A stretch of 39,940 bases of DNA from a virus (IMGVR_UViG_3300002307_000008:1-39940), one strand, 5' to 3'; counted from the first letter of the stretch, positions 647-39,940 are shown. Numbers and translations are program-made. Notes: a model not told the origin generated them from the letters alone.

Positions 647-1291
647 GTGTACGTGGCTGGCAACACGAGGTCCGCAGAGATTGCGGCAATCAAAGAACTA
701 CTTGGAATATCCGCAACGAGAATGGCGGCTCGTCTTGGCGTCAAGCCGTCGACGCTGCATAACTGGGTGTACGGGAGGTCCGACAACGTTCCCGATTCAG
801 TGATGGCGAAAGCGCGCGCGATGGTAAGCACAAACGACGTCGGGCCTCCCAAGATCCCGGCGTCTCAGCTCTTGATTCCAGTCCCTTTCATCGGAGGGGT
901 TGCGGCTTCGAGTCCGGCTGATTGGACCGATCCTTTTGAGTCTGAAACGTTCGAATACGTGCCTCCCGAAATGGGCGACGTACGCGGCAGGTTCGCTTGC
1001 AGTGTCATTGGCGACTCAATGTACGAGCTGCTTCAGCAAGGCGACGTGTGCGTCTTTCAGTCTTCAACCACGCCTAAAATCGGCTCCGTTGTCCTGTTCC
1101 GATCAGACGACCGCAAAGTCACGATCAAGACTCTAAAGCATGACGGGAATAAATTTGTGCTCCATCCCGAGAACCCGTCGTACGAAGATGTTGAAGCTCG
1201 CGGTCTGTGTATCGGCTATCTCGTTGGCATTGTTCGCGAGGTCGGATCGAAGCGGGTGACGGTCTACGATCCGACCGGCATCCGAGCCTAG
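647..1291 (+). CDS. CI/LexA-type repressor (N-terminal XRE HTH plus C-terminal S24 peptidase)
   Basis: The HTH segment is LLGISATRMAARLGVKPSTLHNWVYG. The S24 serine motif is GDSM (VIGDSMYELL), with a downstream lysine in VTIKTLKH. GTG start at 647. Confidence 0.8.
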   Translation: MYVAGNTRSAEIAAIKELLGISATRMAARLGVKPSTLHNWVYGRSDNVPDSVMAKARAMVSTNDVGPPKIPASQLLIPVPFIGGVAASSPADWTDPFESETFEYVPPEMGDVRGRFACSVIGDSMYELLQQGDVCVFQSSTTPKIGSVVLFRSDDRKVTIKTLKHDGNKFVLHPENPSYEDVEARGLCIGYLVGIVREVGSKRVTVYDPTGIRA

Positions 1292-2692: not shown

Positions 2693-2910
2693 TGCAATCG
2701 ACAACGGAAACTCTCCTGGTCACCGTCGTCAAACGCGGCCCGTACAGCCTGATCGTCACCCCACGAATCGACCGCAGAGGTTTCGTCCTCGCGGTCACCG
2801 GCCCGGACGGAATCAAATCCGCCCGGCGCCGCCGGCCCTTCGAAACTCGCCACCACGCCCTCAAAACGGGCCTCCGAATTCTCCAAACCAGCGCAGGTGA
2901 TCTCTCATGA
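2692..2910 (+). CDS. Hypothetical protein (72 aa)
   Basis: Track ORF 2686..2910. The ATG at 2692 overlaps the upstream TGA. Confidence 0.45.
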   Translation: MQSTTETLLVTVVKRGPYSLIVTPRIDRRGFVLAVTGPDGIKSARRRRPFETRHHALKTGLRILQTSAGDLS

Positions 2911-3711: not shown

Positions 3712-3920
3712 GCGCAGTCGCTGGCCGAATCGCCGAGACCTACGCCGACCTCAGCACGGCTGAGGTCGTCGGCCAACAGCAGGTCGCACTCAAACGCCTC
3801 GAGGAGGCCCGACTGGAGTGGAGCAACTGGCACGAACGACTACTGACCATCGACACCGTTCTCCGGACCCGACCCGAATACGAAATCGACCAAGCGCGAA
3901 AGGAGCGCCAACCGAAATGA
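3708..3920 (+). CDS. Hypothetical protein (70 aa)
   Basis: ATG at 3708 is preceded by AGGAGG. It lies within track ORF 3663..3920. Confidence 0.55.
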   Translation: MSAVAGRIAETYADLSTAEVVGQQQVALKRLEEARLEWSNWHERLLTIDTVLRTRPEYEIDQARKERQPK

Positions 3921-5413
3921 ACGAACTATTCCTACAGATTCCCCTGTCGTCAATCTCTGAATCTCCGTCGAACCCGCGCAAAACCTACAGCGACTCAGCC
4001 CTCGACGAATTGGCCAGCTCGATCCAGGCGCACGGCGTTCTGCAACCGTTGCTGGTGCGACCGATCGGAAATGATCCGCACGACAACGCATACGAAGTCG
4101 TGTTTGGCCATCGACGACTTCGAGCGGCGGAACGCGCCGGCATTCCAAACGTGCCCTGTCGGATCCGCGAAATGTCGGACGACGAGGTCCTCGAGTGCCA
4201 GATCATCGAGAACGCGCAGCGCGAGGATGTCCATCCTCACGAGGAGGCACTCGGCTACAAGCAGCTCATCGATCGCGGAATGTACGACATCGACCAGATC
4301 GCGGTCAAAGTCGGCAAGTCCGCCAAGCTCGATCCGGAGGTAGCGACGAAACTCCGAGACGCCGGCGCCGCGATCGACAGCCTGGAGCGAATTGCGGCCC
4401 TCAATCCCGATGATCAGCTGGCGATGTGCAATTGGATCATCACTGCACATTGGGGCACACCTAATGCTTCGGAGGTCCGGCGTCAAATCGAAAACGCCTT
4501 TGTGCTTCGGCTCGACGACGCAGCGTTTAACCCGAAGGATGCAAAGCTGGTCGCCTCGGCTGGGTCCTGCGTCGGCTGCGTGTTCAACACTGCGTCACAG
4601 GCTGACATCTTCGCTGATGGTGAATCAGACAAGAAGCAGGGCCGCTGCCTCAACAAGCCGTGCTTCACGACCAAAACGAACGCCCACATCGAAGCGGTCC
4701 GCGCAACGGCCGTTAAGAAGTACGGCGAAGTGACAAACCTATCGATTCAACATGCCGAATCGAAGGTCGGGCTGCCTTCAAAGAACTGGACTGCATGCGA
4801 TGCCGATGATCCAGAGGCCAAGCCGGGAATGATCGTCGAACATTGGCGAGGATCCGAGATTGGCAAGATCGTCCATTTCAAACCGACTGTGGCGATTCGC
4901 ACGACCGAGACCGGGGCGAGCATTCCAGAAGATCGAACGGCCCGACTCGAGCAGCTCCGCGGATACAAGATCGAGACGACATTCCGACGTGCGGTTTTCG
5001 ACGCCTGCCTCGTCTGCTTCCCGATCGAGCCTGACGCGAAGTTCATCACTGAGTTCCTTCGAGTCGCCGTCGCCCAGGCCGTGGTCAGCCCATCGTACAA
5101 CCCGTACGACTCCAAGGACGCTGCGAAGCATCCAGGACTGCAGCCAGCGAAGGAACTGCTTGGCATCGCGAAGGAAGGTAGTCGCGAACTCAATCTGACT
5201 AAGGCGGCAATTGGAGACGTGTCGACCAGTCTCAAGGCTCTGTTCATCTTGGCCACCAAATCCGAGATCGCGAACAACGATAACTGGCAGAAACACACAC
5301 CGTTCGTCTTGATGCACACGGCCGCGTTGTGCAATGTCGACGTCGAGATGCTGAGGAAGGAAGCCGAGGCCAAGTTCGCTCCAAAGGCCAAGAAAGGCAA
5401 GGCGGCAGCGTGA
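3917..5413 (+). CDS. ParB/Srx N-terminal domain protein with a Cys-rich central region (ICE/plasmid ParB-like)
   Basis: ParB-N motifs are present: ISESPSNPRK, GVLQPLLVRP, VVFGHRRLRAAERAG and IIENAQRED. A later segment reads GSCVGCVFNT..GRCLNKPCF. The ATG at 3917 overlaps the upstream stop. Confidence 0.75.
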   Translation: MNELFLQIPLSSISESPSNPRKTYSDSALDELASSIQAHGVLQPLLVRPIGNDPHDNAYEVVFGHRRLRAAERAGIPNVPCRIREMSDDEVLECQIIENAQREDVHPHEEALGYKQLIDRGMYDIDQIAVKVGKSAKLDPEVATKLRDAGAAIDSLERIAALNPDDQLAMCNWIITAHWGTPNASEVRRQIENAFVLRLDDAAFNPKDAKLVASAGSCVGCVFNTASQADIFADGESDKKQGRCLNKPCFTTKTNAHIEAVRATAVKKYGEVTNLSIQHAESKVGLPSKNWTACDADDPEAKPGMIVEHWRGSEIGKIVHFKPTVAIRTTETGASIPEDRTARLEQLRGYKIETTFRRAVFDACLVCFPIEPDAKFITEFLRVAVAQAVVSPSYNPYDSKDAAKHPGLQPAKELLGIAKEGSRELNLTKAAIGDVSTSLKALFILATKSEIANNDNWQKHTPFVLMHTAALCNVDVEMLRKEAEAKFAPKAKKGKAAA

Positions 5414-5703
5414 AAGTCACGACGTACGACGGCGAAGGCTACGCGACCGACATTGAAGTCGGTCCGATCAATGTCGAGCTAGATCAGTCGAACATGCTCC
5501 AACCTCGCGAGCTGTTCCTCGCCCAGGGGTTCAGACCAAGCTACATCATCGACCGAGGAGCAGACGGCAAACCGCTCACCAAAACCGAGCAGGTGCGAAT
5601 GGTCGGCAACTCGGTGTCTCCGCCACCGGCCAGAGCGCTGCTTCTCGCCAACCTGCAAAGTATGGTCGCTCGCAACGACATGCGCAAGGCGGTGGTCGCA
5701 TGA
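5410..5703 (+). CDS. Stand-alone C-terminal fragment of a DNA (cytosine-5) methyltransferase (motifs IX-X only)
   Basis: MLQPRELFLAQGFRPSYII resembles (T)PRE..RLQGFP. VRMVGNSVSPPPARALL resembles motif X (Q.GN.V.PP.A). Motifs I, IV (PC) and VI (ENV) appear nowhere in the window. GTG at 5410 overlaps the ParB stop. Confidence 0.6.
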   Translation: MKVTTYDGEGYATDIEVGPINVELDQSNMLQPRELFLAQGFRPSYIIDRGADGKPLTKTEQVRMVGNSVSPPPARALLLANLQSMVARNDMRKAVVA

Positions 5704-6988: not shown

Positions 6989-7296
6989 AGCAATCTGTCA
7001 CCTATTCGATCTCGATCGACGCTGACTACAAGCCACTGAAATATTGGTCTGACACATGGGCGATTCCCATCACGACGATCCGAACGTGGATCCAAAACGG
7101 CAAGTGCCCGGCCAAGTTGATCGGTGGCCAATATATGATTTCGCAGCTCGAACTGTTAAACTGGACACCTCCAGAAAGCGAAAAGGACGGTCATGGCGAG
7201 AGCGAAGGGCGAGGGGACGTACGAAAGAAGAAAGAGCGACCTGCAATATCGGTTCGTGCTTCAAGCGGACAAAAAACGTCTCGTTGGCCCGTTTAA
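6985..7296 (+). CDS. Excisionase-family HTH protein
   Basis: WAIPITTIRTWIQNGKCPAKLIGGQYMISQLELLNW resembles the MerR/excisionase HTH. GTG at 6985 overlaps the upstream stop. The low-complexity tail overlaps the integrase start by 104 nt. Confidence 0.5.
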   Translation: MKQSVTYSISIDADYKPLKYWSDTWAIPITTIRTWIQNGKCPAKLIGGQYMISQLELLNWTPPESEKDGHGESEGRGDVRKKKERPAISVRASSGQKTSRWPV

Positions 7297-8341
7297 GCCG
7301 ACCAAATCCGAAGCGCTCAAAGCGTGGAAGGAAAAGCAGAAACAACCACCCAAGTCGAAACCGAAATCCGCTGATCCATTCTCCCAACCTGATCGAGTCT
7401 GCATCGGCGATGAGATTTACTGGTGCTTGTTTGGCGTTTGGGACAGTCCGGACGGCGAACGACCAACAACCAAGGGTATCTGGGCCGACGAGCTCGCTCC
7501 AACCACCTACCAGCTCTATTTCGACGCATTCAAAGCGCGGATCCGCCACGACCCGATCGCGCTCATGGATCCCGCTGAAGTCGACGTGCGCGACCTCGAG
7601 TCGTTCCGATCGCGGCTACTGCACACACCATCGAGCTACACGCGAAAGCTAAAAACCAAAAAGCCCGACGGATCGATCGAAGTAAAAGACCTGATCGTCG
7701 AGCGCCCTCCTCTCAACGGCCGCTCGGTCATGCGGTACATGACGCCCGTCTTCAAAGTGTTAAAGCGGCATCGAAACCTCTGCTACCGCGAATTGGGAAC
7801 GCTGAAACTCAACCCGCCGAAGAAAGCCTGGCTCACCCATTCCGACCGTGACGCGTTCCTGGCCCTCATGAACTCGCCAATGCTCCGTAGAGCGGCCCTG
7901 TTGATGATGCACGGCATGTCGATCGGAGAAGTGTGTAAAGTGACGTCCGACGCGTTTGACGGCCACACAATCGAAATCTCGGAGCAAACGAGCATGATCG
8001 GCGGAAAGGCGGTCGACCGTGGCCAACTCAAGCGAGCACGAAGGTATCGCAAATTGCCGGCAAATCGCTTGCTGAAACAAGAACTGGCTGGTGTCACAGG
8101 CCGCCTCGTCGACTTCATTCCGTCATCGCTTCGGCGGGCGATCGAGCGAAAGGTTGCCGGCACGAAATTCGAAAACATTGGACCGCACGACCTGCGAAGA
8201 TCCGGAGGAAAGTGGATGCTCGACGCCGGCGCGAAACTCAGCGACGTGGCGGCCATTCTCGGCAATGATCCACGGACGCTCTTGGTCTGGTACGACACCT
8301 CAGACGCCGAAGGAAAAGCGAGAGCGATCGAGGCGGTCTAA
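7193..8341 (+). CDS. int: Tyrosine recombinase (phage integrase)
   Basis: The C-terminal catalytic pattern is HDLRRSGGKWML...LGNDPRTLLVWYD (H-x-x-R ... Y). The N-terminal arm-binding-like segment is GTYERRKSDLQYRF..FKPTKSEALKAW. It is adjacent to a tRNA-derived core. Confidence 0.85.
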   Translation: MARAKGEGTYERRKSDLQYRFVLQADKKRLVGPFKPTKSEALKAWKEKQKQPPKSKPKSADPFSQPDRVCIGDEIYWCLFGVWDSPDGERPTTKGIWADELAPTTYQLYFDAFKARIRHDPIALMDPAEVDVRDLESFRSRLLHTPSSYTRKLKTKKPDGSIEVKDLIVERPPLNGRSVMRYMTPVFKVLKRHRNLCYRELGTLKLNPPKKAWLTHSDRDAFLALMNSPMLRRAALLMMHGMSIGEVCKVTSDAFDGHTIEISEQTSMIGGKAVDRGQLKRARRYRKLPANRLLKQELAGVTGRLVDFIPSSLRRAIERKVAGTKFENIGPHDLRRSGGKWMLDAGAKLSDVAAILGNDPRTLLVWYDTSDAEGKARAIEAV

Positions 8342-24904: not shown

Positions 24905-26305
24905 TTACGCCTGCTTTCCTGCGTGCAGTGCGCGGTTTTGGACGACCTGGCCGCCTAGTCGGAACCGGAAGTACCAGCCGACCTTGTTGGCCTTGATCAT
25001 CGACTTGTCCTGGTCGCCGTATGGGATGACCGAAAGGCCGATGCGTCGTGCGACAACATACGCCGACTTGAGGTCGCCGAATGCAATCGGGTAGTTGTTC
25101 GTCGCGCAGTTCGGCATGAATGCGCTTAGAATCACGTTGAAACCAAAGAGCTGCGGAGTTCGTGGCGTGGCCATGCCTTCCGGTCCGTTGCTTCGCGCAA
25201 GGCCGAAGATGTACTGACCGGACGTGTCCTTGATCTGCGCGAGCGTCGAGAAACATGAAATCTGATTCATGATCGCAATCGTGCGCTCGGGGTCGCTCAT
25301 GTACTGAGGAGGCATCGCGTAGATGAAGCTCGTCAGCTTGTCCGCCGTGATCGGGTCGCCAAGGTTGGTTGACGGCGGGTACATGCCCGACGCGCCCGGG
25401 TTAAGCATGAAGCCAGTTGGCTGGCCTGCGCCCGTTCCGTTCACAACCACGTTCTCGATTCCAAGCTCGTATGCCTGGGCCGCAAGATCCTGGAGAATCA
25501 TGTTGACCGCATATGGGGAGTCTTCGAGCAGGTTCTTGTTGACCTCAAGGCCAAAGAGGCCCGTATAGATCGGAACTTCAACGTCTCCAAACACTGGATC
25601 AGTCGCGTCTACGGCTGGGCCTTGTTCGCCCGTCCACGAAATGCGAACGCCCGACGTATAGATGTCGCCGGTATCCGAATCGTAGTTGACCCGCGGAACA
25701 ATGAGCTTGTCACGGGTGCTCGGGATCGTGTTGACGTAGTTGAGAAGCCGCGTCGGTGCGGGCTTGCGCATGATGACCTGAGCGAGCCATTCCGGCGGGA
25801 CGAGGTAACCGCCGCCTTCATCGGAGCCTTCGGTCAGAACCGATCGGTAATCGTTTGAGTCGGCCTTGCCGCGCAGGTGGCGGCTGAACGCTGCGGAATA
25901 CGCCGGTTCAGAGATCGCCTTGAACTGCTTTTCGCTGATGCCCCAGCCTTCTGCGTCCATGCCGGTCGCGCGGCCGTTTCGGTCAAAACCGATAAGGTCA
26001 GTTCCCGCCCGTCCGTCAAACTGGATTGAGCTCGCAATCTGTTGCTTTTGCGCCGCGTCCATCGCGGCAAGCTCATTGCCTTCCGCCGTGGTGAACGACG
26101 CGAGCGAACGAATGCCGTTTGCGCCGTTCAGGAAATCGTTTGCCCCCGCCGCTTGTTCGGCGAGTTTGGTTGCGTGACCAATCGCAAGCTGCGCTTGCTT
26201 GATGTCGTCAGGAAGCGCCTCGACTCGAACTGGGTCGGTCGTCGTCTGCGCCTCAGTGATGAGACTCTGCAATTTGTCTTGCAGTGCTTTAAGATGTGGA
26301 TTCAT
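24905..26305 (-). CDS. Major capsid protein, HK97 family, with N-terminal coiled-coil (delta-like) region
   Basis: It has the GGYLVPPEW motif. Size and position after the prohead protease fit the family. Confidence 0.75.
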   Translation of the reverse strand: MNPHLKALQDKLQSLITEAQTTTDPVRVEALPDDIKQAQLAIGHATKLAEQAAGANDFLNGANGIRSLASFTTAEGNELAAMDAAQKQQIASSIQFDGRAGTDLIGFDRNGRATGMDAEGWGISEKQFKAISEPAYSAAFSRHLRGKADSNDYRSVLTEGSDEGGGYLVPPEWLAQVIMRKPAPTRLLNYVNTIPSTRDKLIVPRVNYDSDTGDIYTSGVRISWTGEQGPAVDATDPVFGDVEVPIYTGLFGLEVNKNLLEDSPYAVNMILQDLAAQAYELGIENVVVNGTGAGQPTGFMLNPGASGMYPPSTNLGDPITADKLTSFIYAMPPQYMSDPERTIAIMNQISCFSTLAQIKDTSGQYIFGLARSNGPEGMATPRTPQLFGFNVILSAFMPNCATNNYPIAFGDLKSAYVVARRIGLSVIPYGDQDKSMIKANKVGWYFRFRLGGQVVQNRALHAGKQA

Positions 26306-27480
26306 TTTTCTCCTGCGCCAGCAAGCGTGAGCGTCGCGCTGAGAATTGCCTGATTGAGCGCAGAGCGATCGGGTTTCGATGCTTCCGCGAGTTCAGAGAG
26401 TTCTCGGTCGACGTCCGCCAGTTGGCTTCGTGTGTCGTTAATCGCCTGAACCGCCGCCCAGCTAAGCGAGCGACCGTCTTTGGCCTTGAGCGCCTTCATG
26501 GAGGCGACTCGGTCCGTGAATCCGCGATTGGCTGCAAGCACCTCGGCGGAATGCTCAGCAAAGGTCAGGCCAGCAGGCGACCCGTCTTCACTGCAAATCG
26601 TTGTGTCGTGTTCAGCGCGGGCGGTATATCCCGATTCGACAATCTGCGCCGCCGCCTGGTCGAGCGTGCAGATGCTGTCAATCAATCGCTTGTCAAGTGC
26701 GTCCGCTGCGAGCCACACCTGACCGGTTGCGACCGACTTGACCGCTTTGGCTCCCATGCCACGCCCATTGCCAACCGCAGCAAGAAAATGCGAATTGAGA
26801 TCGTCGACGACACGCTGGAAATCGGCGCGTTGCTCGTCCGTGATGACGGAGCCAGGAACGCCCGCGCCCTTATGCGGCCCGGTCGAAAACACCAAGACTT
26901 CGACGCCTTCACTTTCCGCCGCCTTCGACTGATCGTACAGAACCATGTAGGTCCCGATCGAGCCGATAAGTGCCGTCGCGTTCGAGAAAATCTTTGTGCA
27001 CTGAGAAGCCACCCAGTACGCCGCGGAGCAGCACGAGTCTTCGACGTAGGCATACACCGGCTTCATGGCCGCGATGCGCTGCACGTCGGACGCAAGGTCA
27101 GCGGTGCCCGAAACGTTGCCGCCAGGCGAGTCGATGCGGATGACAATCGCCTTGACGTCCTTATCGCCAGCCGCCATGCGGAGTTGACGACGCAAGAGCG
27201 TAGTCGACGTGCCCGCACTCATGCTCGGCGCTCGCGACTTCGTCATTGGACCAGTGAGGCTCAAATATGCGATCTTGTCGCGAACTTCGTACTCGCGATC
27301 ATCGGAACGGGCCGCGTCGACAGTTACGACCGAAGACGCTTCGAAAGCCTGCACATGAGCAAGCGCCGGAGTCGCGCGAAAGATCGTCAGGTATTGCCGA
27401 GCCGCCGTTTCCTCGATTGCCCAGTGCGGGCCGTGAGGTACCAGCAGCGCGGTCATGTCCGCGTTTGGATGGATGTTCAT
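26302..27480 (-). CDS. S49 (SppA/ClpP-fold) prohead protease with C-terminal scaffold-like extension
   Basis: It has KAIVIRIDSPGGNVSG and SAAYWVASQC..IGSIG motifs. The helical C-terminal ~120 aa overlaps the capsid gene start (ATGA). Confidence 0.75.
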   Translation of the reverse strand: MNIHPNADMTALLVPHGPHWAIEETAARQYLTIFRATPALAHVQAFEASSVVTVDAARSDDREYEVRDKIAYLSLTGPMTKSRAPSMSAGTSTTLLRRQLRMAAGDKDVKAIVIRIDSPGGNVSGTADLASDVQRIAAMKPVYAYVEDSCCSAAYWVASQCTKIFSNATALIGSIGTYMVLYDQSKAAESEGVEVLVFSTGPHKGAGVPGSVITDEQRADFQRVVDDLNSHFLAAVGNGRGMGAKAVKSVATGQVWLAADALDKRLIDSICTLDQAAAQIVESGYTARAEHDTTICSEDGSPAGLTFAEHSAEVLAANRGFTDRVASMKALKAKDGRSLSWAAVQAINDTRSQLADVDRELSELAEASKPDRSALNQAILSATLTLAGAGEK

Positions 27481-27491
27481 GTTTGTGTCCG

Positions 27492-27785
27492 TTAGGCCAA
27501 AGGAGGCATTCCAGCCTCGGCGCGGTAAGCAGTAGCCATGCGCTGCGCTTTTCGCAGCCCGTCGATGACAAGGGTTTGAGCGGTAGGAAGTGGCGGCAAA
27601 GTTGCCTCAACACGCGCGGAAATCTGCTCGAGTCCGCTCGTGAAAACATTCAAAACAGCTTCGTCAGCCTTGAGCGACGCACCAGCGTCAACCGTGATCG
27701 GCCATTCGACTTCGCCGCACGAATGCTGAATCTTGATCAGGACGACCGCCATACCGTCCTCGGTGACCATTGGGCTAACCTGCAT
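27492..27785 (-). CDS. Hypothetical protein (97 aa)
   Basis: The internal ATG (27785) of track ORF 27492..27905 is used. The upstream part of that ORF overlaps the portal gene and is Arg-rich. Confidence 0.4.
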   Translation of the reverse strand: MQVSPMVTEDGMAVVLIKIQHSCGEVEWPITVDAGASLKADEAVLNVFTSGLEQISARVEATLPPLPTAQTLVIDGLRKAQRMATAYRAEAGMPPLA

Positions 27786-29055
27786 TCTTGTCCTCTGACC
27801 CCATCGTCTGCTTTTGGTTTCGAAGTGTGTCGCCGCCGTCGACCGGGTCAAGTCCGATCTGCGCACGCCCTTCGTTTGGCGTCTTGATCGGGCCGCCGGT
27901 TTCAAGCATCAGCTCGCAGATAAACCTGGCTTTCAGTGCCGGAATGTTTGCTTCGTCATACGTGATCGACTCGCCCGGTTCGCCCAGTTCTAGCACCAGG
28001 TCTTCCGTGAGTTGGCGGGCGCGGTTGCGAAGGAACGGAAGCACGAAGCGGTCAAACGTGATGTCGATCGCGCCTTCGATGCTTGCCCGGTTGTTCGAAT
28101 GCTCGAGGCCAGTGCCGAGGCCGATAACGACCGGCTGCACCCCAAAAACGGCGCACAGTCGCTGCTCGCTGAAATCGTGAACTTCCTTCAGAGCAAGCTG
28201 CGACGGGTCAAAGCCGAGCTTCATTACGTCGAGCGGAACGTTGAAGACAATCGGCCGTCCGACATTGCCGCCCGTGATCTGGCGTTCAACCTTCGATGCG
28301 ATCTGGTCAGTTTGCGCTTCAGTCAGCTCGACCTCGACGCCGTCAGGCCATTGCTTCGGAAAGATTGCCTGCGGCGATACCCCTGAGTTGTTGAGCAACG
28401 CGCTTTCCATGCGCGTGGCTTTCTTGTCCGCCACCAGCTCGGCAATGGCCGCGTCAATCGGGGACATGCCGACCTGCAAAAACTGCGGGTTCGGAGTCGC
28501 CCATCGGATGTGCAAAATGTCGTCCGGAGGAACTGCGTAATATCCGGTCCCCGTCGCAACCCTATACTCCGTGATCCAATCGCCGGACCCCGGCCGCGTC
28601 CATGGATAGCAAGTGCCCTCCGGAAGCAGCTCGAGCGCAATCAGTTTGCCGCCGCGCGACCTGTGCTTGTACGCGTAGCTGTTACCACGCGAGCCCTCCA
28701 TGAAGACCTGGCCAGTCTGCAAGAGCGAGCCGTCATACCAAGGCGTCGGCTGCGCGAGTAGCCCGGTTAGCGCGTGGTCCTGAACCTGCTCAGTCGAGCC
28801 ATCTTCCTTTTTTCGCGTGACGATCAGCGGAACTGAGACCGCGCATTCAGCCGCGAACGCAAGGATCGCGTAGACAATCGAGTTGTCCCACCGAACGCCG
28901 GCTTCTTTGTTGAAATCGAGACCGCTGGCTGCAAATCCACCGTACAGGCCCGCGCCTGACCATCCTCCGCCATAAGTCGAGCCGGTGAGCGATTGCACAT
29001 CGCTTTTTGGCTTGTACGACTTCCGTGCGGAGTTAAGGATTCGATTGATCGCCAT
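27775..29055 (-). CDS. Portal protein (HK97 family-like)
   Basis: 426-aa ORF between TerL and the protease. General resemblance to HK97-type portals. Confidence 0.7.
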   Translation of the reverse strand: MAINRILNSARKSYKPKSDVQSLTGSTYGGGWSGAGLYGGFAASGLDFNKEAGVRWDNSIVYAILAFAAECAVSVPLIVTRKKEDGSTEQVQDHALTGLLAQPTPWYDGSLLQTGQVFMEGSRGNSYAYKHRSRGGKLIALELLPEGTCYPWTRPGSGDWITEYRVATGTGYYAVPPDDILHIRWATPNPQFLQVGMSPIDAAIAELVADKKATRMESALLNNSGVSPQAIFPKQWPDGVEVELTEAQTDQIASKVERQITGGNVGRPIVFNVPLDVMKLGFDPSQLALKEVHDFSEQRLCAVFGVQPVVIGLGTGLEHSNNRASIEGAIDITFDRFVLPFLRNRARQLTEDLVLELGEPGESITYDEANIPALKARFICELMLETGGPIKTPNEGRAQIGLDPVDGGDTLRNQKQTMGSEDKNAG

Positions 29056-29173
29056 TAGTCAGATATCCAAGTAGCGCGCGCCACGCGACAAAGCAACCGA
29101 GCCCGATGAAAAAGCAAATGCCGAGAGCGCATCCCGCGCCGAGGATCGCTGTGAACGGTTGAATGAAGTACAT
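29033..29173 (-). CDS. Small hydrophobic ORF (46 aa) between terL and portal
   Basis: Translation is MYFIQPFTAILGAGCALGICFFIGLGCFVAWRALLGYLTNGDQSNP. The ATG overlaps the TerL stop (TGATG). Confidence 0.3.
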   Translation of the reverse strand: MYFIQPFTAILGAGCALGICFFIGLGCFVAWRALLGYLTNGDQSNP

Positions 29174-30603
29174 CAGGAAGCCTTTATGGTCACGGACCGC
29201 TTTGCGGAAATCTCGGTAAATCCGTCCGAAGCCGCGTCAACTTGGTCGTCGTGCTTACCGCCAGGAAATTGCCTCAATTCCTCAACGAAAGCCGAATTCC
29301 AGAGGCATCGAACGATGTAAACATTGCCCGCGTTAACCTGCGAGGCGAGTCCGTCTGCGCGAACCTCTTTTGAACCGCTCACTCGCTCTGTTACGACAGA
29401 GAATCCGGCCAGCATACGTGTGAGTCGCGACGCTTGGTCCTTGCCAGCTTGTCCTGGATCCTGCGGAATGTGGATTTTGACCGACCGACCATCAAGTTCA
29501 GCCGTAAGCTTCATCTGTCGATCGCGCTCATCGCTGTCCCACTGACCTCGAACGACGTCGAGGACGTAAAACCGATTTTCGCTGTCAACTCCAAACTTGA
29601 CTCCGGCGGTATAGTCGCCCGTCGACTCGCTCGCCGCAAGGTCCCATGCTCGGCAGCACCTCAGCCCGTCCGGTGCAGAATCTTCGAATTTCAGGCGATC
29701 GACTTTGAACTGTGATCCTTCGCGCGGAGTTGGATTGCCTTGGAAGACCGCCTCAAACTCATAGTCGCCCATCGCACGTCGCTGGGATTCCAGGAACTCG
29801 ATAGGCTTTGCTTCGGGCCAAAGCGCCTCGCCAGGATCGCGCTGCAGCGGATCATTTTTGCCGGCGATTGCTGGAAGGTTGATGAACGTCCAACCAGGCT
29901 CGCCCGATGCCTTGATGCGGCCAATGAGGTCATCTTCGTGCCACCGCGTGGCGATCAGAAAGACGCGTGTCTGCGGCCAGAAGCGCTGAACGATCGAGCC
30001 AGTCCACCAGCGCCAGATGTTCTCCCGCTCGACCGGGGAATCAGCTTGGGCTCGGTCCTTGATCGGGTCGTCGGTGATCAGTAGCCCGATCGGGTTGACG
30101 CCAGTCGGTGCCGAACCGACGCCTCTAGCCAGAATCTTCGCGCCGTTGCGCAGCTCCCATTGCTTTCGCGCCGTCGCGCGATCGCCGAGGACGCCGAGCT
30201 CACGGGCCAATTCTCTCGCCGGATCGCTAAGGTTTGCCTCCGCAAAGTCTTGAGAATAGCCGGTCAAAACGGTGATGTCGGCCGGGAATCGCTGACCCCA
30301 AAAGATCGGCAATCGTTGAGTAACGACGAACGTCTTTGCGTGACCAGGCGGGAGACTGATGGCAACCCTCTTGATCTCGCCATCGATGAGCCGTTGCGCA
30401 ACCTCGATTAAATAGCGAACGTGCTTCGGGACGCCGTAACCGGAGGGAAGCGTTCGCAGATACCACTCGAGGTAATCGTCCGGGCGCTCAAGCTGGACAG
30501 CCGCCGGCGATTCACGCGGGGCTAGCGATTCCGCTAACCTCAGGATCGCAGAGTCGAACAATGTCCTGTCGGATCGCTGCGAGTACGTCAGGGGCCGTGA
30601 CAT
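29173..30603 (-). CDS. terL: Terminase large subunit
   Basis: It has LPPGHAKT (Walker A-like), VFLIATRWHEDDLIGR and the C-terminal nuclease-like GGKHDDQVDAASDGF. Confidence 0.85.
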   Translation of the reverse strand: MSRPLTYSQRSDRTLFDSAILRLAESLAPRESPAAVQLERPDDYLEWYLRTLPSGYGVPKHVRYLIEVAQRLIDGEIKRVAISLPPGHAKTFVVTQRLPIFWGQRFPADITVLTGYSQDFAEANLSDPARELARELGVLGDRATARKQWELRNGAKILARGVGSAPTGVNPIGLLITDDPIKDRAQADSPVERENIWRWWTGSIVQRFWPQTRVFLIATRWHEDDLIGRIKASGEPGWTFINLPAIAGKNDPLQRDPGEALWPEAKPIEFLESQRRAMGDYEFEAVFQGNPTPREGSQFKVDRLKFEDSAPDGLRCCRAWDLAASESTGDYTAGVKFGVDSENRFYVLDVVRGQWDSDERDRQMKLTAELDGRSVKIHIPQDPGQAGKDQASRLTRMLAGFSVVTERVSGSKEVRADGLASQVNAGNVYIVRCLWNSAFVEELRQFPGGKHDDQVDAASDGFTEISAKRSVTIKAS

Positions 30604-32726: not shown

Positions 32727-32783
32727 GCCACCGGGCAGGAATCGAACCTGCGCACCAAATCTCTACCACTGAGCTACCGGTGA
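32727..32783 (-). ncRNA. tRNA-like element lacking an anticodon arm (mini-tRNA or truncated tRNA pseudogene)
   Basis: The minus strand reads TCACCGG-TA-GCTC-AGTGGTA-GAGA-TTTGGTGC-GCAGG-TTCGATT-CCTGC-CCGGTGG-C. It has a 7-bp acceptor, a D arm and a canonical T arm. Only 8-9 nt sit where about 22 nt of anticodon arm plus variable loop should be. Confidence 0.5.
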
Positions 32784-32897: not shown

Positions 32898-32960
32898 ATT
32901 CCGGATTCCGCATTGGAATTCCAATCAAAACGCCGGAATTCCAATGAAAAGCCCGGAAAA
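32898..32960. promoter_or_regulatory. Cluster of GGAAT/ATTCC sites, including a perfect 14-bp palindrome
   Basis: The sites are ATTCCGG-ATTCCGC (32898..32911), ATTGGAATTCCAAT (32912..32925), GGAATTCCAAT again at 32935..32945 (exact 20-bp spacing) and CCCGGAAAA at 32952..32960. Confidence 0.6.
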
Positions 32961-34752: not shown

Positions 34753-36750
34753 TTAGCCGATCACCTTCCGAGAACTCGAACCGGTTGTCCGCGGGCCGAT
34801 GACCTTATCTCGCTCCATTCGATCGAGAATCCGCGACGCTTCCTGAAACCCGATCTTGAACCGGCGCTGGAGCATCGACGTCGATATCTGCGAACCGTCG
34901 CGAGCATATGCGAGTGCCTGCGCGTACAGAGAGTCCGATTCGTCTGAATCGGACTCCTTGGGGTCCTCAAACGCGATCTTGAGCTGATAATCGGGCTTCC
35001 CTTGAGTTCGCCATGCTTCGCATAGAGCGGCAACCTCGGCCTCGCTGACGAAGCAGCCCTGAACGCGCATCGGCTTGCTCGCCTCGATATGCGAGAACAA
35101 CATGTCACCGCGCCCGAGTAGCTTCTCCGCTCCGACGCCGTCGATGATCGTCCGTGAGTCGACCTGCGATGCGACGTTGAATGCGATGCGTGACGGGATG
35201 TTTGCCTTGATCAGTCCGGTGATGACGTCGACGCTCGGTCGCTGCGTCGCGACGATCAAGTGAATGCCTACAGCGCGGGCAAGCTGCGAAAGACGCACGA
35301 TCGTCGTCTCGACGTCGTTCTTCGCTTGGATCATCAGATCAGAAAGCTCATCGATGACCACCACGATGTACGGCATGCGATCTTGGAACGAAACCTTCTC
35401 GTTGTAGCTGACAATGTTGCGAACGCCAGCATCCGAGAGAAGGTCGTACCGTTTGTCCATCTCTCGCCAGACGGCGCGCAAGACGCCAGGAGCCTCCTTC
35501 ACGTCTTTGATGACCGGGCACATGAGGTGCGGAATGCCGTCAAAGAGCGTGAGCTCAACCCGTTTCGGGTCGATCAGCACCAGGCGGAGATCCTTGGGCG
35601 TGTTTCGCACGAGGAGCGATGACAGGATCGTCGCAAGTCCGATTGATTTGCCGCTGTTCGTAGTTCCACCGATCAGAAGGTGAGGCATCGAAGCAAGGTC
35701 TGCGCAAACCGGTTGGCCGAGGATGTCTAGACCGAGCGTGAACATCAGAGGGCTTGGGCTGTCCATGAACGCCTTGCGCTGCGCTATCTCGCGCATGAAC
35801 ACGGTTCGGGGATGGCTCGTCGGCACCTGGAACCCGATCGTCCGCTTTCCGGGAATCGGTGCCTGAATGATCACCGACGAGACGCCGAGCGCCATCTGAA
35901 CGTTGTCCGAGAGCTCCGCCACCTTGCTTGTCTTGATGCCGTTAGGAATCTCAAGCTCATAGAGCGACACTGTCGGGCCTGGATGCACTTTTGCGACACG
36001 GCCGTTGACCCCGAAGGACCGAAGCGTCGCCAATATCTCACCCGAGTGCTCACCAATCTTGTCGATCTTTGGTTCGCTCGGTTCGCTCAAGAGTGCGAGC
36101 GACGGCAACGTGTAGCCGTCTCGGGCGATAACCGATGTCGCATCGTAGTCTCGATCGAGGATTGCAATCTCCGGCGTCGGCTCCGTCGGTGACTTGTGCG
36201 CGACTGTCGGTGCTTGAGCTACGGCGCTTGCCTTTGGTTTGCGCTGCTTTTGTACGGTCGTCGTCTCGGCTTCGTCGTCTTCGAGTTCGGGTTGCGACCT
36301 TGTGGTCGATGATCGACGGACGGCAAACACGCCTTGCACGTCGATGTCGCCTTCCCAGTCGGAGAAGAGGTTGATGTGCTCCTCGTCTGGGCTAAATGTG
36401 AATTTGAATCCAACAACCTGCTCGCTTTCGTTGGCTGGTGTGAACAAATCGACCGAGACCGCGCCGTAGAGATTGGATCGCTCCGCCTCGAGCAGTGCCT
36501 CCTTTCGCTGAGTCGCATAGTGACCACCAGGAACAAATTTACCGATGAGAATGGCCGAGCTTCCGTCGTTCGCGACAATGGAGTTCGGACCAACTCCGAT
36601 TGAGCAGGACTCCCACGAATCATCACCCTTGTACGGACGCTGGCAAAATGCCGTGATCAATGCTTTGACAACCGCGCCGCCTATCGGCATCTGAAAATCA
36701 GATTGCGGGTCTACGATCTCTTCTTCAACTTTCGCTATTTTCTTACTCAC
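34753..36750 (-). CDS. FtsK/SpoIIIE-family DNA translocase: soluble, with C-terminal gamma-like winged helix and an unassigned N-terminal domain
   Basis: Walker A is GGTTNSGKS and Walker B is YIVVVIDELSDL. It also has ATQRPSVDVITGLIKANIPSRIAF and the gamma-like ISTSMLQRRFKIGFQEASRILDRMERDKVIGP. There are no N-terminal TM segments. GTG start overlaps the upstream stop. Confidence 0.85.
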   Translation of the reverse strand: MSKKIAKVEEEIVDPQSDFQMPIGGAVVKALITAFCQRPYKGDDSWESCSIGVGPNSIVANDGSSAILIGKFVPGGHYATQRKEALLEAERSNLYGAVSVDLFTPANESEQVVGFKFTFSPDEEHINLFSDWEGDIDVQGVFAVRRSSTTRSQPELEDDEAETTTVQKQRKPKASAVAQAPTVAHKSPTEPTPEIAILDRDYDATSVIARDGYTLPSLALLSEPSEPKIDKIGEHSGEILATLRSFGVNGRVAKVHPGPTVSLYELEIPNGIKTSKVAELSDNVQMALGVSSVIIQAPIPGKRTIGFQVPTSHPRTVFMREIAQRKAFMDSPSPLMFTLGLDILGQPVCADLASMPHLLIGGTTNSGKSIGLATILSSLLVRNTPKDLRLVLIDPKRVELTLFDGIPHLMCPVIKDVKEAPGVLRAVWREMDKRYDLLSDAGVRNIVSYNEKVSFQDRMPYIVVVIDELSDLMIQAKNDVETTIVRLSQLARAVGIHLIVATQRPSVDVITGLIKANIPSRIAFNVASQVDSRTIIDGVGAEKLLGRGDMLFSHIEASKPMRVQGCFVSEAEVAALCEAWRTQGKPDYQLKIAFEDPKESDSDESDSLYAQALAYARDGSQISTSMLQRRFKIGFQEASRILDRMERDKVIGPRTTGSSSRKVIG

Positions 36751-36920
36751 GTTGCTTTCACCTCAAAGCTGTTGCTTGAAATCCTTCGGGCTGCGAGTCT
36801 GCGCAGCTCTTCGGCCCGATTCCTGAGCCGCAAGGCGTCCGCCTCGTGTCGTTCATGCCATCGTCGAACCGCTTCGTCCTGGCAATGGCGCGCCAGGTCA
36901 ATGAGTTTCTCTGGCTTCAT
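36747..36920 (-). CDS. Hypothetical small helical protein (57 aa)
   Basis: The ATG at 36920 overlaps the VRR-NUC stop (ATGA). It is the internal start of track ORF 36747..37019. Confidence 0.4.
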   Translation of the reverse strand: MKPEKLIDLARHCQDEAVRRWHERHEADALRLRNRAEELRRLAARRISSNSFEVKAT

Positions 36921-37339
36921 CGTTTGGAACCTCCTTGGAGCTGAGAGATCATCGACTGGATGCGCTGCATCGTGATCGTTCGATCGATATCGGCGAATCG
37001 GTAATAGGTGCGCATCCACTGCGCCACGGCGTCGAGCGCCATTTCGACCGTCCAGACGAAACGGTAGTGGCCAAGCTTGACCATCCGGATCTGATCGGGC
37101 CGACGTCGCGCCTTCTCGCTGCGCTTAACCTCAAGGCCAAGGCAGGAGCCACCGATGATCGGATGCCAGACGAGCAGGTCGGGAATCCCAAGCGAGACTC
37201 CCGATGACTCCTTCTGTCGATGCGCCGAAGTCGACAGCACCGTAAACCCGCAATGCTCTAACGCCTGCATGATCGCCACCTGGATGTCGTCCTCACTCGC
37301 CTTCGGGATGACCTTGGAGCGGGTAGCGGTTGCAGTCAT
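36917..37339 (-). CDS. VRR-NUC domain nuclease
   Basis: GIPDLLVW...LGLEVKRSE....Q gives the PD-(D/E)xK pattern of VRR-NUC. The ATG at 37339 overlaps the upstream stop. Confidence 0.65.
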   Translation of the reverse strand: MTATATRSKVIPKASEDDIQVAIMQALEHCGFTVLSTSAHRQKESSGVSLGIPDLLVWHPIIGGSCLGLEVKRSEKARRRPDQIRMVKLGHYRFVWTVEMALDAVAQWMRTYYRFADIDRTITMQRIQSMISQLQGGSKR

Positions 37340-38022: not shown

Positions 38023-38150
38023 ACAAAACACCTCGCTCCTGGTTCGGGATAATCAGGCCACCCGATGGCCTCAAAAAAGTCGGATTCCTCCGGTGTGTCG
38101 ATAACGTGGTCGCGGGCGATCGCTATTGGAATGCGAACCGCGTCGCTCAT
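38019..38150 (-). CDS. Hypothetical small protein (43 aa)
   Basis: ATGA overlaps at both ends. Translation is MSDAVRIPIAIARDHVIDTPEESDFFEAIGWPDYPEPGARCFV. Confidence 0.35.
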   Translation of the reverse strand: MSDAVRIPIAIARDHVIDTPEESDFFEAIGWPDYPEPGARCFV

Positions 38151-39592
38151 TTAGCGGCCGCCTTCGCCTCTGCGACCTGCTGATCATTTGCGGATTCCAG
38201 GAAGTCCCAGAACACAAGCCACCCTCCGAACTTATCGGCCCTTGACCCAATCGTGAGGGCCTCGCACAGCGCAGCTCGAACCGAATCAAATCGCTCCGGC
38301 GCGATGTTTCGAACGTCGGCGAGTGCCCTGCACCGCTGGCCCAGATCGGCCATCTCAGTCGCTGGTTGTGCGTTCATCGCCGTCGGCTTTGGCCAGCGGT
38401 AAGGCTTCCAACCGAACGCAAATCGGTCACCCGTCTCGGTCGTGCAGCTGCCGTCATACTGATGGTGAGTCTGAGGCTCAAACTCGAACGGATCGTCTTC
38501 AGTCGTCGCGGCCGTAGTCGTCGATGTACGCATCGTGCTCGCCGAAGAATCCGACAAGTCCGCTGGATGTGGCTTGGCTGAAGGCTCGGCCGCGTTTGCT
38601 TTTGGGTCCTCGACCACCTCTGCAACGACTACCGGCTCTGGCAACACACCGTCTCGAATAAACACGATGCACTGCTCCGGTGTGGTGAGCTGACGATCCT
38701 TGCAGGCCAGTGCCGCGAAGCGAAAATCGATCTTGTCGCAAGCTGACTTGAATTCCTGGAAGCGCTCTTTGCCGATCACGGCCTTCATGAACAACGTCGC
38801 CTCGTCGTTCTCCTCGATGTTGCATTCCCGCTCCAGCGTGAGCCAGTTGCGAGGGCGGACGTATTGCGGTTCGGCCACCGCCGGACCCGTCGCAGAGACC
38901 ACACGCTGGCCCGCTGACTCCTCGACAACTTCGCCGTCGATCGAAGTCGCCTCGTGAATGTCCTCCGCGTCTTGCGTGAAGCGGTCCGATAGACCGAGAG
39001 TCGTCAGAACCGCGTCGACGAACGCGCGCTTTTTGGCCATCTTGATGATGGTGTTCTCGCTGTCCCGAGGCTGCCTGATGTACTTCGATTCCATCGAGCT
39101 ACACGACCCAACGCCTTGGCCCACCTCGCGACCGTCGTGCGAGTAAAGTCGGCACCTAATCACGTAGCGGTACAACCCGAGCGACGTTCCCGCCTCGACT
39201 TCCGCTTTCTGGAAGTAGGTTCCCCCGTTCTTCGAGGTTCGGTTCCGTCCGATTCCTTCGGCGATAAGGCGCTGCTGCTCCGCCTCCGGAACCCTAGCCG
39301 AAACCCACTTCGTCATCGAGTAACGGGTCTCATAGTCATGGACGACGTCCTGCTCAAGCACGTCGAAGTCAGGCCGCAGCCCGAACCCTGCCGTCAATCG
39401 CTCGGCCCCGGCTTTGAGCAGGGTCATGCGCTTGTCGTTCGTTCCAGGAATGACCCCGAAATCCTTGCCCTCCTCAAGGGCTTCATTGACAAAGGCCGTC
39501 AGCGCCTTGTGTGCGTCGATGACGTCCGCTGGTGCCGCGATCGGTCGCAGCAACGCCGGTTTTGGTGCGTCGTAGGTAGCGAGTTCACTCAT
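38147..39592 (-). CDS. Putative single-strand annealing or recombination protein with ~250-aa C-terminal extension
   Basis: The N-terminal half has LLKAGAERLTAGFGL...GVGSCSSMESKY...IIKMAKKRAFVDAVLTTLGLSDRFTQD. This resembles phage recombinase families as I recall them, and the gene sits in a recombination module. The family assignment is unverified. Confidence 0.4.
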   Translation of the reverse strand: MSELATYDAPKPALLRPIAAPADVIDAHKALTAFVNEALEEGKDFGVIPGTNDKRMTLLKAGAERLTAGFGLRPDFDVLEQDVVHDYETRYSMTKWVSARVPEAEQQRLIAEGIGRNRTSKNGGTYFQKAEVEAGTSLGLYRYVIRCRLYSHDGREVGQGVGSCSSMESKYIRQPRDSENTIIKMAKKRAFVDAVLTTLGLSDRFTQDAEDIHEATSIDGEVVEESAGQRVVSATGPAVAEPQYVRPRNWLTLERECNIEENDEATLFMKAVIGKERFQEFKSACDKIDFRFAALACKDRQLTTPEQCIVFIRDGVLPEPVVVAEVVEDPKANAAEPSAKPHPADLSDSSASTMRTSTTTAATTEDDPFEFEPQTHHQYDGSCTTETGDRFAFGWKPYRWPKPTAMNAQPATEMADLGQRCRALADVRNIAPERFDSVRAALCEALTIGSRADKFGGWLVFWDFLESANDQQVAEAKAAAK

Positions 39593-39940
39593 TCGGAGTC
39601 ACCGCCTCTGTTGCTGGCTCTTCTGGTAGTCCGGTTTCGGTCAAAATTCCGAGTCCGACTTCGCCGCCGACTGCCTTACCGCAGGTGATAGCGTCCGACC
39701 AACCAGCCGGTTTGTGCTTGTAAATCCAAACCCCCGCGAAGATCTTGGTTGACCACTGCAAAACGAGCTTGCAAAGGATGCCCTCACCGGCCTCGATGCC
39801 CGAACCGGCCTTGATGCCCCAACCGGCCTTGATGCCCTCACCGGCCTCGATGCCCGAACCGGCCTTGATGCCCCAACCGGCCTCGATGCCCTCACCGGCC
39901 TCGATGCCCGAACCGGCCTTGATGCCCCAACCGGCCTTGA
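39585..39940 (-). CDS. Hexapeptide-repeat protein, 3' part (GI[KE]AG[WSE] repeats, then ILCKLVLQWSTKIFAGVWIYKHKPAGWSDAITCGKAVGGEVGLGILTETGLPEEPATEAVTPNE)
   Basis: The frame is open from the window end to TGA at 39587..39585, overlapping the ATG (39592) of the next gene. It is in frame with 1..309 once the 47-nt duplication is removed, giving about 205 aa as assembled. Confidence 0.7.
   Translation of the reverse strand, partial: KAGWGIKAGSGIEAGEGIEAGWGIKAGSGIEAGEGIKAGWGIKAGSGIEAGEGILCKLVLQWSTKIFAGVWIYKHKPAGWSDAITCGKAVGGEVGLGILTETGLPEEPATEAVTPNE
39777..39940. repeat. 18-bp tandem repeat array (9 units plus 2 nt) with 54-bp super-period
   Basis: Read directly. The units cycle CTC/CGA/CCA at the variable triplet. 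Joined to 1..99 after removing the 47-nt duplication, this gives 12 units (216 bp). Confidence 0.95.
39894..39940. repeat. Terminal overlap identical to 1..47 (direct terminal repeat from assembly or circular closure)
   Basis: Character-by-character comparison gives 47/47 identical. A register shifted by one 54-nt super-repeat (alignment starting at 39840) does not match perfectly. Confidence 0.9.

Follow-up and report, generated by a model that had tools for sequence, protein, structure and literature searches.

The gene studied here lies at positions 34753 to 36750 of IMGVR_UViG_3300002307_000008, a stretch of viral DNA of 39,940 nt that was analyzed at its full length and is termed the window. 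It encodes a soluble translocase of the FtsK family with 665 amino acids (aa), and its GTG start codon is preceded by GAGGTG. The protein begins with a globular domain and a low-complexity linker, followed by the alpha, beta, and gamma parts of FtsK (Table 1), and another public assembly of this phage contained an identical protein. The initial annotation of the window had proposed a complete FtsK motor with its characteristic motifs, a C-terminal winged helix resembling the gamma domain, the absence of membrane segments, and a linker rich in Pro, Thr, and Ala, all of which held in the domain, motif, hydropathy, and composition analyses. It had missed that the N-terminal region contains a rare domain, predicted to be clamp-like, which marks a prophage-specific clade and is partly deleted in the window copy.

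Table 1. Features of the window. Positions are counted from the first nucleotide of the window; residues are those of the 665-aa protein.
Feature	Position	Strand	Basis or remark
Soluble FtsK-family translocase gene, 665 aa	34753..36750	-	ORF (open reading frame) list, Pfam, PDB, NCBIfam; GTG start, TAA stop
N-terminal domain, residues ~17-145; rare family, predicted beta-clamp-like	36316..36702	-	Alignments, HMMER, AlphaFold, Foldseek
Low-complexity linker, 67 aa (residues 146-212), rich in T, A, S, P, E, D	36115..36315	-	Composition
FtsK alpha domain, residues 215-310	35821..36108	-	Pfam PF17854
FtsK beta (RecA-like) motor	35026..35793	-	Pfam PF01580
Walker A GGTTNSGKS, residues 361-369	35644-35670	-	Sequence motif
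Walker B VVVIDELSDL, residues 463-472	35335-35364	-	Sequence motif
ATQRPS motif, residues 501-506	35233-35250	-	Sequence motif
IPSRIAF motif, residues 518-524	35179-35199	-	Sequence motif
FtsK gamma winged-helix domain, residues 604-664	34759..34941	-	Pfam PF09397
Gamma recognition helix GFQEASRILDRME, with private R-to-E change	34813-34851	-	Phage clade compared with cellular FtsK
Putative replication initiator, DUF1376/"primosomal protein"-like, 347 aa	33709..34752	-	phrog_9327, 1.9e-16
57-aa ORF between nuclease-like gene and FtsK	36747..36920	-	Sequence; also called in public assembly
Nuclease-like protein, 140 aa, PD-(D/E)xK-like IPDLLVW...LEVK motif	36917..37339	-	Weak PHROG matches
cro-like gene	321-599	-	Faces S24 repressor; start of leftward early operon
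CI-type repressor, helix-turn-helix (HTH) and S24 peptidase	647..1291	+	phrog_4, 4.9e-19; Pfam Peptidase_S24, 2e-17
Gp157/Gam-like protein	2907-3449	+	
ParB-like protein	3818-5413	+	
Integrase	7193-8341	+	
Standard capsid, protease, portal, and large terminase set	24905-30603	-	

The assignment to FtsK was based on the agreement of several profile and structure searches. The alpha domain ahead of the motor scored 80.4 bits against a Pfam cut-off of 22.9 bits (E 1.2e-22) and opened at the canonical YTLPSL motif (residues 213 to 221), the FtsK_SpoIIIE family matched residues 320 to 507 with an E value of 4.8e-53, and FtsK_gamma scored 65.2 bits against a cut-off of 30.6 bits (E 4.2e-18). The gamma domains with the PDB entries 2J5O and 2VE8 matched that of the window protein at an E value of 7e-7, and the closest solved structure for the protein was that of FtsK, 2IUS (E 1e-115). 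All four motor motifs agreed with the consensus of the nearest cellular FtsK proteins, and 80% of 247 positions invariant in the cellular proteins were retained, which placed the window protein near the top of its own clade.

The NCBIfam scores were 414 bits for FtsK, about 100 bits for EccC/EssC, and 61.4 bits for TraB (NF041214). Because the FtsK score far exceeds those of EccC and TraB, and the DUF87 match (18.5 bits) remained below the Pfam gathering cut-off of 23.2 bits, the motor is assigned to FtsK proper. A HerA- or VirB4-like motor, which the initial annotation had named among the findings that would overturn its proposal, was rejected on the DUF87 score. A TraB-like identity was rejected against the equivalog cut-off of 800 bits, and a type VII EccC/EssC identity against cut-offs of 509 to 778 bits and by the presence of a single ATPase domain. 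A reading of the motor as a terminase was also rejected on the scores, the match to a terminase PHROG being weak (4e-6). No membrane segment was found in the protein: the peak hydropathy over 19 residues was 1.33, compared to more than 2.1 in nearly all cellular FtsK proteins listed, and the FtsK_4TM anchor (PF13491), which the nearest cellular FtsK proteins possess, gave no match. As judged from these sequence comparisons, the window gene is a true FtsK with alpha, beta, and gamma domains and without a membrane anchor.

The region upstream of the motor had been described in the initial annotation as an N terminus of about 230 residues matching nothing recognizable. The lack of a family match stood, but the extent had to be corrected to a folded domain of about 130 aa and a 67-aa linker, which falls outside the conserved alignment of the N-domain ending near residue 145. 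The complete domain of this family comprises about 190 aa. The window copy carries a private in-frame deletion of 58 aa between residues 95 and 96 (nt 36463 to 36468), which occurred in none of the others among 35 aligned sequences and was the same allele in the two assemblies.

A word-indexed search with the window N terminus alone yielded one relative. The family became visible through a full-length search, which returned about 42 proteins of 634 to 809 aa that combine this N-terminal domain with FtsK, and through an exhaustive HMMER profile search, which found 55 clusters in 1.84 billion representatives. None of 36 members had a Pfam match, and the family gave neither a PHROG match nor a match to a PDB sequence. 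A helicase-loader or primase domain, which would have contradicted the initial annotation, was not matched either, and a clamp-like structure was predicted instead. A scan of IMG/VR with the N-domain pattern revealed no relatives. A first scan of the GTDB genomes gave no N-domain and a second one a single locus, located in a Fimbriimonadaceae metagenome-assembled genome.

Several arrangements of the N-domain were found, in more distantly related proteins, in addition to the order in the window protein. The gamma domain is positioned ahead of the motor in P0160 and P0163, which contain N-domain, gamma, alpha, and beta, while P0124 and P0133 contain the N-domain with alpha and beta and without gamma. 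The 378-aa protein P0151 consists of N-domain and gamma and is motor-less; its gene is located two genes upstream of that for a separate 614-aa HerA-type ATPase (DUF87, E 1.4e-8) in a prophage (L022 8001-11366), and both together look like a split counterpart of the fusion. Stand-alone N-domain proteins of about 200 to 260 aa exist, and the domain was also found at the C terminus of uncharacterized proteins of about 480 aa. In P0001 (L001 7343-8251), a complete N-domain is followed by an unrelated degenerate tail with a stop after 302 aa, near apparent host genes, and this protein is probably what remains of an FtsK fusion after decay of the prophage. On these domain arrangements, the N-domain is recurrently tied to parts of FtsK and to motors of the FtsK/HerA type, and the arrangements with gamma alone, with gamma ahead of the motor, and beside a HerA-type motor suggest a modular system for the targeting of pumps.

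The fold of the N-domain was evaluated with predicted structures. The AlphaFold model of the complete domain, built from a family member, was confident (pLDDT 88.5, pTM 0.83), and its secondary structure is compatible with three beta-alpha-beta-beta-beta-like motifs. For the shortened domain of the window protein, a moderately confident model (pLDDT 77) showed the order helix, four strands, helix, three strands. According to the models, this layout resembles two motifs, equivalent to one domain of a sliding clamp, and the window copy would have lost a piece of about the size of one motif with the 58 aa. In a Foldseek search against predicted viral structures, the top matches were short phage proteins designated "DNA polymerase III beta subunit" (probability 0.9 to 1.0, TM 0.41 to 0.55, best E value 7e-4), and in a search against the PDB, DnaN clamps ranked top for both N-domain models at non-significant values (E 0.013 to 0.1, TM 0.2 to 0.4). 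A clamp-like fold of the N-domain is thus somewhat more probable than not on the basis of the models, as a prediction distinct from an established homology. That the domain is a true sliding-clamp module, which upon hexamer formation of the FtsK motor would assemble into a clamp-like ring encircling the same duplex or attach to such a ring, is a much bolder idea and improbable. In such an arrangement, the shortened allele would provide one two-motif domain per subunit, resulting in six domains as in the ring of the beta clamp or of PCNA.

The position of these proteins within the FtsK family, to be clarified according to the initial annotation, was obtained with a motor tree calculated from a 453-column alignment of 42 N-domain proteins and 78 cellular, membrane-anchored FtsK proteins with 30 bootstraps. 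The 42 proteins formed one clade apart from the cellular proteins in all 30 bootstrap trees, in addition to the assignment to FtsK proper by the profile scores. The motors of the clade were on average 57% identical to each other, those of the cellular set 81%, and motors from different groups 56%; for the motor of the window protein, the identity was 63% with its closest relatives in the clade and about 60% with cellular FtsK proteins. The separation of the clade and this pattern of identities therefore point to a single, fairly old event of capture and fusion, after which evolution in the phages would have been faster. The nearest cellular FtsK proteins bear the names Fimbriimonadaceae or Fimbriimonas, and one clade member was encoded on a 343-kb contig labeled Fimbriimonadaceae bacterium; going by these affinities, the hosts of the phages are Fimbriimonadaceae-type bacteria (Armatimonadota). 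The gamma domain is kept in 34 of the 42 clade members, and the recognition helix of the clade (GFQRASRLLD) corresponds to that of the cellular set, albeit more variable.

In the window, the genome of a temperate tailed phage, the FtsK gene is part of a leftward early operon, which runs from the cro-like gene through the genes for a repeat protein, a 481-aa, a 43-aa, and a 228-aa protein, the nuclease-like protein, the 57-aa ORF, FtsK, the DUF1376 protein, and a 236-aa protein toward the terminase. This operon is divergent from the S24 repressor gene across the circular junction, and the gene calls of the second public assembly agree with the layout. The initial annotation had the FtsK gene coupled by stop/start overlaps to an upstream VRR-NUC gene. 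The coupling was verified, yet it is not direct and occurs via the 57-aa ORF, which overlaps the upstream gene with ATGA and FtsK with GTGA and possesses the ribosome-binding site AAGGAGG; its product had no family match in the profile searches. The VRR-NUC label found no support, as the 140-aa protein matched no Pfam, NCBIfam, or PDB entry and only weakly the uncharacterized phrog_824 (5.6e-7) and phrog_5702, a Holliday junction resolvase (1.4e-4). Downstream, the stop codon of FtsK directly abuts the start codon of the next gene (TAAATG), as previously noted. The DUF1376 label of this gene was only in part sustained, with a score of 29.1 bits just below the Pfam cut-off of 30.1 bits, but the "primosomal protein" PHROG matched clearly, and the product is likely, from these similarities, the initiator of the phage. 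No NCBIfam or PDB match was obtained with the 481-aa, 228-aa, nuclease-like, DUF1376, and 236-aa proteins.

Other parts of the window concern the structure of the genome and its regulation. An 18-bp tandem repeat is present at both ends (1 to 98 and 39777 to 39940), and the window starts and ends inside this repeat, which encodes the hexapeptides GIEAGE/GIKAGW/GIKAGS in a minus-strand ORF that extends from position 312 or so over both ends as far as about 39593. Because this ORF spans the ends, the genome should be circular or circularly permuted with the assembly broken in the repeat, and the number of repeats is probably under-assembled. A function of the terminal repeats as origin iterons was considered and rejected because they encode the hexapeptide repeats, which resemble those of a left-handed beta-helix. 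The palindromes ATTGTGC-N8-GCACAAT and TTGTGTACAA at 600 to 646, between the cro-like and the S24 repressor genes, are likely operators of the immunity switch. A tRNA-like element of 57 nt at 32727 to 32783 on the minus strand, with acceptor, D, and T arms and without an anticodon arm, is located in a 500-nt gap between the genes for the 236-aa and a 98-aa protein; it scored 33.2 bits in a local search compared to an Rfam tRNA gathering threshold of 29 and was missed by ARAGORN and by a gathering search of the whole window. Transcriptionally just upstream of it, at 32899 to 32958, two tandem repeats of 20 bp were found together with inverted repeats that overlap and center on the palindrome GGAATTCC; the site could serve in regulation, as an origin, or in packaging. 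The 481-aa early protein (38147 to 39592, minus strand) shares its N-terminal part of about 210 residues with proteins of very diverse phages (phrog_10048), among them Synechococcus phage Sc-Yong805-2 (47% identity), Geobacillus virus E2, D6E, Myxococcus Mx4, and Eggerthella PMBT5. A tblastn search of phages returned only "hypothetical protein" labels for it, and its position suggests a role in recombination or replication. The ParB-like gene overlaps a 124-aa ORF (5329 to 5703, plus strand) whose similarity to DNA methyltransferase PHROGs (4e-21) is confined to their C-terminal end, and both may represent a frameshifted or split ParB-methyltransferase.

As stated in the initial annotation, no helicase, primase, polymerase, or DnaA/DnaC protein was identified when the 39 ORFs were compared with PHROGs and subsets of them with Pfam and NCBIfam. 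The use of the host replisome is ordinary for a temperate phage of 40 kb with no more than an initiator-like protein of its own, as exemplified by lambda O and P. The absence of replication genes is not special because small temperate phages usually rely on the host replisome. A relation between the FtsK gene and this absence, implied in the initial annotation, was not supported by the comparison with eight other contigs containing N-domain genes: L006 encodes its own DnaB helicase, in addition to RusA, together with the same fusion, and L002 an SNF2 helicase. Since L006 encodes DnaB, the fusion is no stand-in for a replicative helicase.

The fusion gene was located in an early operon of a prophage in most of these eight contigs, with an S24 repressor gene annotated nearby in five of them (L001, L002, L003, L006, and L008). 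The FtsK gene of L002 overlaps that for an RNase_T-type exonuclease, which is followed by SSB, and a Gp157/Gam-like gene is located just upstream; a homologue of the nuclease-like protein of the window is also present. The order of Gp157, FtsK, and SSB recurs in L008 with an unannotated 208-aa gene in the position of the exonuclease. In L003, the neighbors are NADAR, DnaJ, and an initiator-like HTH_36 protein a few genes downstream of FtsK, and an initiator-like HTH_36 gene is directly downstream in L023 (8001-10070, P0163). A small terminase gene is located two genes downstream in L004, and RecT, an SbcC-like ATPase, and a metallo-beta-lactamase-fold protein are encoded on the opposite arm of L005. 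Only a few of the other early genes of the window recurred in the relatives. As far as can be deduced from these gene orders, the stable context is early expression in a replication and recombination neighborhood without a fixed partner.

To understand the biological meaning of the fusion, these data can be combined into a model in which a temperate phage infecting Fimbriimonadaceae-type hosts would produce, at an early stage of infection or induction, a functional, cytoplasmic, hexameric double-stranded DNA pump of the FtsK family that would handle replicating or recombining phage DNA. This general statement, as derived from the gene and domain sequences, is probably correct. In the model, a domain of about 190 aa with predicted clamp-like repeated motifs would have taken the place of the membrane anchor of cellular FtsK. 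Since the motor motifs are fully conserved, the alpha and beta domains should form a hexamer that hydrolyzes ATP to move along duplex DNA. The gamma domain, with a recognition helix nearly that of related cellular FtsK proteins, would read polarity motifs of the host type and may contact Xer recombinases. The fold prediction and the recurrent pairing of the N-domain with parts of FtsK indicate that this domain may hold the pump not at the division septum but on DNA or on a partner in replication or recombination. The most likely task would be the unlinking or resolution of replicated genomes, or the feeding of junctions or DNA ends to neighboring nucleases, and the pump would not substitute for the replicative helicase.

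Evaluation of this model needs to consider the observations that weigh against it. The clamp assignment of the N-domain was made from predicted structures alone, the clamp matches in the PDB were non-significant (E of at least 0.013), and sequence searches with the N-domain in Pfam, PHROGs, and PDB returned nothing. The phage clamp profile used for a further comparison comprised 13 members of the Seurat gp31 family, the annotation of one of which cites an HHpred match of 100% to DnaN 3T0P; alignment of the N-domain profile to this family with hhalign resulted in a probability of 1.4%, though equivalent motifs were aligned, and a profile-profile comparison with a single clamp protein was also non-significant. 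A simple motif scan found no peptide resembling a clamp-binding motif in the early proteins. Eight of the 42 clade members are devoid of the gamma domain, and in that of the window protein, the wing is diverged and the recognition helix bears the private R-to-E change, which indicates that the reading of motifs or the contact to Xer may be non-essential. The immediate neighbors are not conserved among the relatives, so that no fixed partner can be named. A polarity motif of the KOPS type was not detected in the 40 kb, a length with too little power for this purpose: GGGNAGGG occurred 0 times on the plus strand and twice on the minus strand, and the most skewed words of the window stemmed from the 18-bp repeat and from codon bias. 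Finally, no experiment has been reported on any phage FtsK, and the role of these proteins has been called unclear (PMC3706429).

More specific tasks were ranked below the general statement of a pump and were each assigned a probability of their own. The pump may deliver its gamma domain to the host XerC/D recombinases or to the phage integrase on the DNA, thereby activating site-specific recombination away from the septum, to resolve multimers of the phage or the chromosome or to aid excision. The retention of gamma in 34 of 42 clade members with a nearly cellular recognition helix, the existence of a motor-less N-domain plus gamma protein such as P0151, which recalls the activation of XerD by gamma alone, and the high recombination potential of a phage with Gam-like and nuclease-like proteins argue for this possibility. 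The eight members without gamma, the altered helix and wing in the window, the presence of an integrase of its own, and packaging, which favors concatemers and leaves the need for a resolution not obvious, argue against it, and a dif-like site was neither looked for nor found, so that this explanation is possible but should be regarded as doubtful. Somewhat less probable still is a translocase-nuclease machine, in which a partner nuclease would receive duplex DNA, ends, or junctions from the FtsK ring, comparable to end resection by HerA-NurA or to RuvAB-RuvC, so that substrates for recombination-dependent replication would arise. This would agree with the translational coupling, via the 57-aa ORF, to the nuclease-like gene with its weak resolvase match, with the exonuclease gene overlapped by FtsK and followed by SSB in L002, the 208-aa gene and SSB in L008, and the Gp157/Gam-like gene upstream in both, and with the N-domain plus gamma protein near a HerA-type ATPase in L022. 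On the other hand, the nuclease neighbors are not conserved across the relatives, the nuclease identity in the window is weak, and a cooperation of FtsK proper with nucleases is not known. HerA-NurA, whose motor belongs to the same ATPase superfamily, is an established example of such a pairing (PMC3326311).

Alternatively, as in the replisome loading considered in the initial annotation, the clamp-like domain may mimic or bind the sliding clamp of the host or its clients and bring the pump to phage replication forks or origins. In addition to the fold prediction, the gene order fits such a link to the replisome, as FtsK immediately precedes an initiator-like gene in the window (DUF1376) and in L023 (HTH_36) and lies a few genes ahead of one in L003. 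The link is nevertheless unlikely: FtsK motors move on duplex DNA without unwinding it, L006 has its own DnaB, the clamp fold is weak at the sequence level, and the motif scan of the early proteins gave no clamp-binding type of motif. Slightly less likely again is that a deregulated cytoplasmic FtsK strips DNA-bound proteins or disturbs segregation and division of the host as a means of takeover or anti-defense. The host-like gamma helix, early expression beside the immunity region, and the PHROGs category of phage FtsK families ("moron, auxiliary metabolic gene and host takeover") are compatible with this, but the category is a filing choice, direct evidence is absent, and the gene is positioned amid replication and recombination genes, which is not typical of a moron. 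The window copy might also be a decaying gene that is losing its function, since the 58-aa deletion is unique among the 35 aligned relatives, the gamma recognition helix and wing are diverged, and the shortened domain was modeled with less confidence (pLDDT 77). This is very improbable because the in-frame deletion spares, by secondary structure, a complete domain of two motifs, the motor is among the best conserved of the clade, the uninterrupted ORF is closely coupled to the adjacent genes, and the identical protein occurs in two assemblies. A TraB-like pump for double-stranded DNA transfer or a packaging ATPase, belonging to the same ATPase superfamily and reflected by the weak matches to TraB (61 bits) and a terminase PHROG (4e-6), is effectively refuted by the profile scores, with 414 bits for FtsK and a TraB cut-off of 800 bits; moreover, the protein contains no membrane segment and the phage possesses a standard set of large terminase, portal, protease, and capsid genes. 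DNA transfer of the TraB kind is hence very unlikely, and the preferred interpretation remains the cytoplasmic pump acting on replicating or recombining phage DNA.

FtsK pumps of phages are widespread and none has a known function. The lineage described here offers a handle on this question. In it, a host-like FtsK would have exchanged the anchor targeting it to the septum for a rare domain resembling a piece of a sliding clamp. If the clamp-like reading holds, it links two classes of ring-shaped DNA machines and shows how temperate phages of the poorly studied phylum Armatimonadota manage their replicating genomes. If the bolder version with a true clamp module were correct, two ring machines would be united in one polypeptide to yield a topologically locked DNA pump that is also able to recruit clamp-binding replication and repair proteins, a previously unrecognized motor of phage replication and recombination. 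If the clamp-like reading fails, the outcome would still be a defined new protein family and a correction to the view of FtsK as compensation for replication genes that are absent.

One of the nearest known systems is cellular FtsK. The proteins from Escherichia coli and Pseudomonas aeruginosa (PDB 2IUS/2IUT/2IUU; gamma domains 2J5O/2VE8) share the domain order, the ATPase motifs, and the winged-helix gamma domain with the window protein, and the motors of Fimbriimonadaceae-type FtsK proteins are about 60% identical to that of the window. In contrast to cellular FtsK, the window protein has no 4TM anchor but the predicted clamp-like domain instead, is phage-borne and encoded in an early operon, and belongs to a separate and more divergent lineage. 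B. subtilis SftA is another FtsK-family protein without transmembrane helices that uses its N-terminal region for targeting (PMC9320952). It is a cellular protein, directed to the Z ring by an amphipathic helix and by binding to SepF/FtsA, whereas the N-domain of the window protein is an unrelated globular domain of prophages.

Among phages, FtsK-like motors are more common than the limited set assumed in the initial annotation. They were found by tblastn in 417 phage records, some of which are short unannotated contigs and may be host DNA, and PHROGs contains several FtsK families. Cluster J mycobacteriophages encode an FtsK without membrane domain, the motor of which is about 60% identical to that of the host FtsK and the role of which is unclear (PMC3706429). 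These proteins (Omega gp203, Thibault gp178, LittleE gp198) are phage-encoded, anchor-less, and equipped with a gamma domain like the window protein, to which they are 44% identical over residues 236 to 591 (tblastn). Their gamma domains were reported to be unlike any bacterial gamma (PMC3706429), whereas the gamma helix of the window clade is host-like. Gamma domains of phages also occur alone or fused to small terminases with unknown roles (PMC8190038). No phage record in the tblastn search spanned residues 1 to 229 of the window protein, and the literature search yielded no paper on an FtsK fused to a clamp-like domain. The fusion of FtsK with the N-domain is thus new, while phage FtsK without a membrane anchor was already known.

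Two other duplex translocases resemble the window system in part. Archaeal HerA-NurA combines a hexameric translocase of the FtsK/HerA superfamily with a nuclease, and the coupling of the window gene to a nuclease-like gene is comparable as an analogy only, since the window motor is FtsK proper and the partner nuclease is neither NurA nor conserved. TraB of Streptomyces plasmids is an FtsK-like motor with a C-terminal winged helix that moves double-stranded DNA of a mobile element; it acts at the membrane in conjugation, in contrast to the soluble, phage-borne window protein. The best structural matches of the N-domain itself were the DnaN-like proteins of phages (Rhodococcus phage REQ2 G9FGZ4, Pantoea phage PSKM, and the Escherichia phage Seurat gp31 family), which have the beta-alpha-beta-beta-beta order and an "...ATD/ATN" strand motif in common with it. 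These proteins stand alone beside a DNA polymerase gene, whereas the N-domain is fused to FtsK in a phage that encodes no polymerase of its own.

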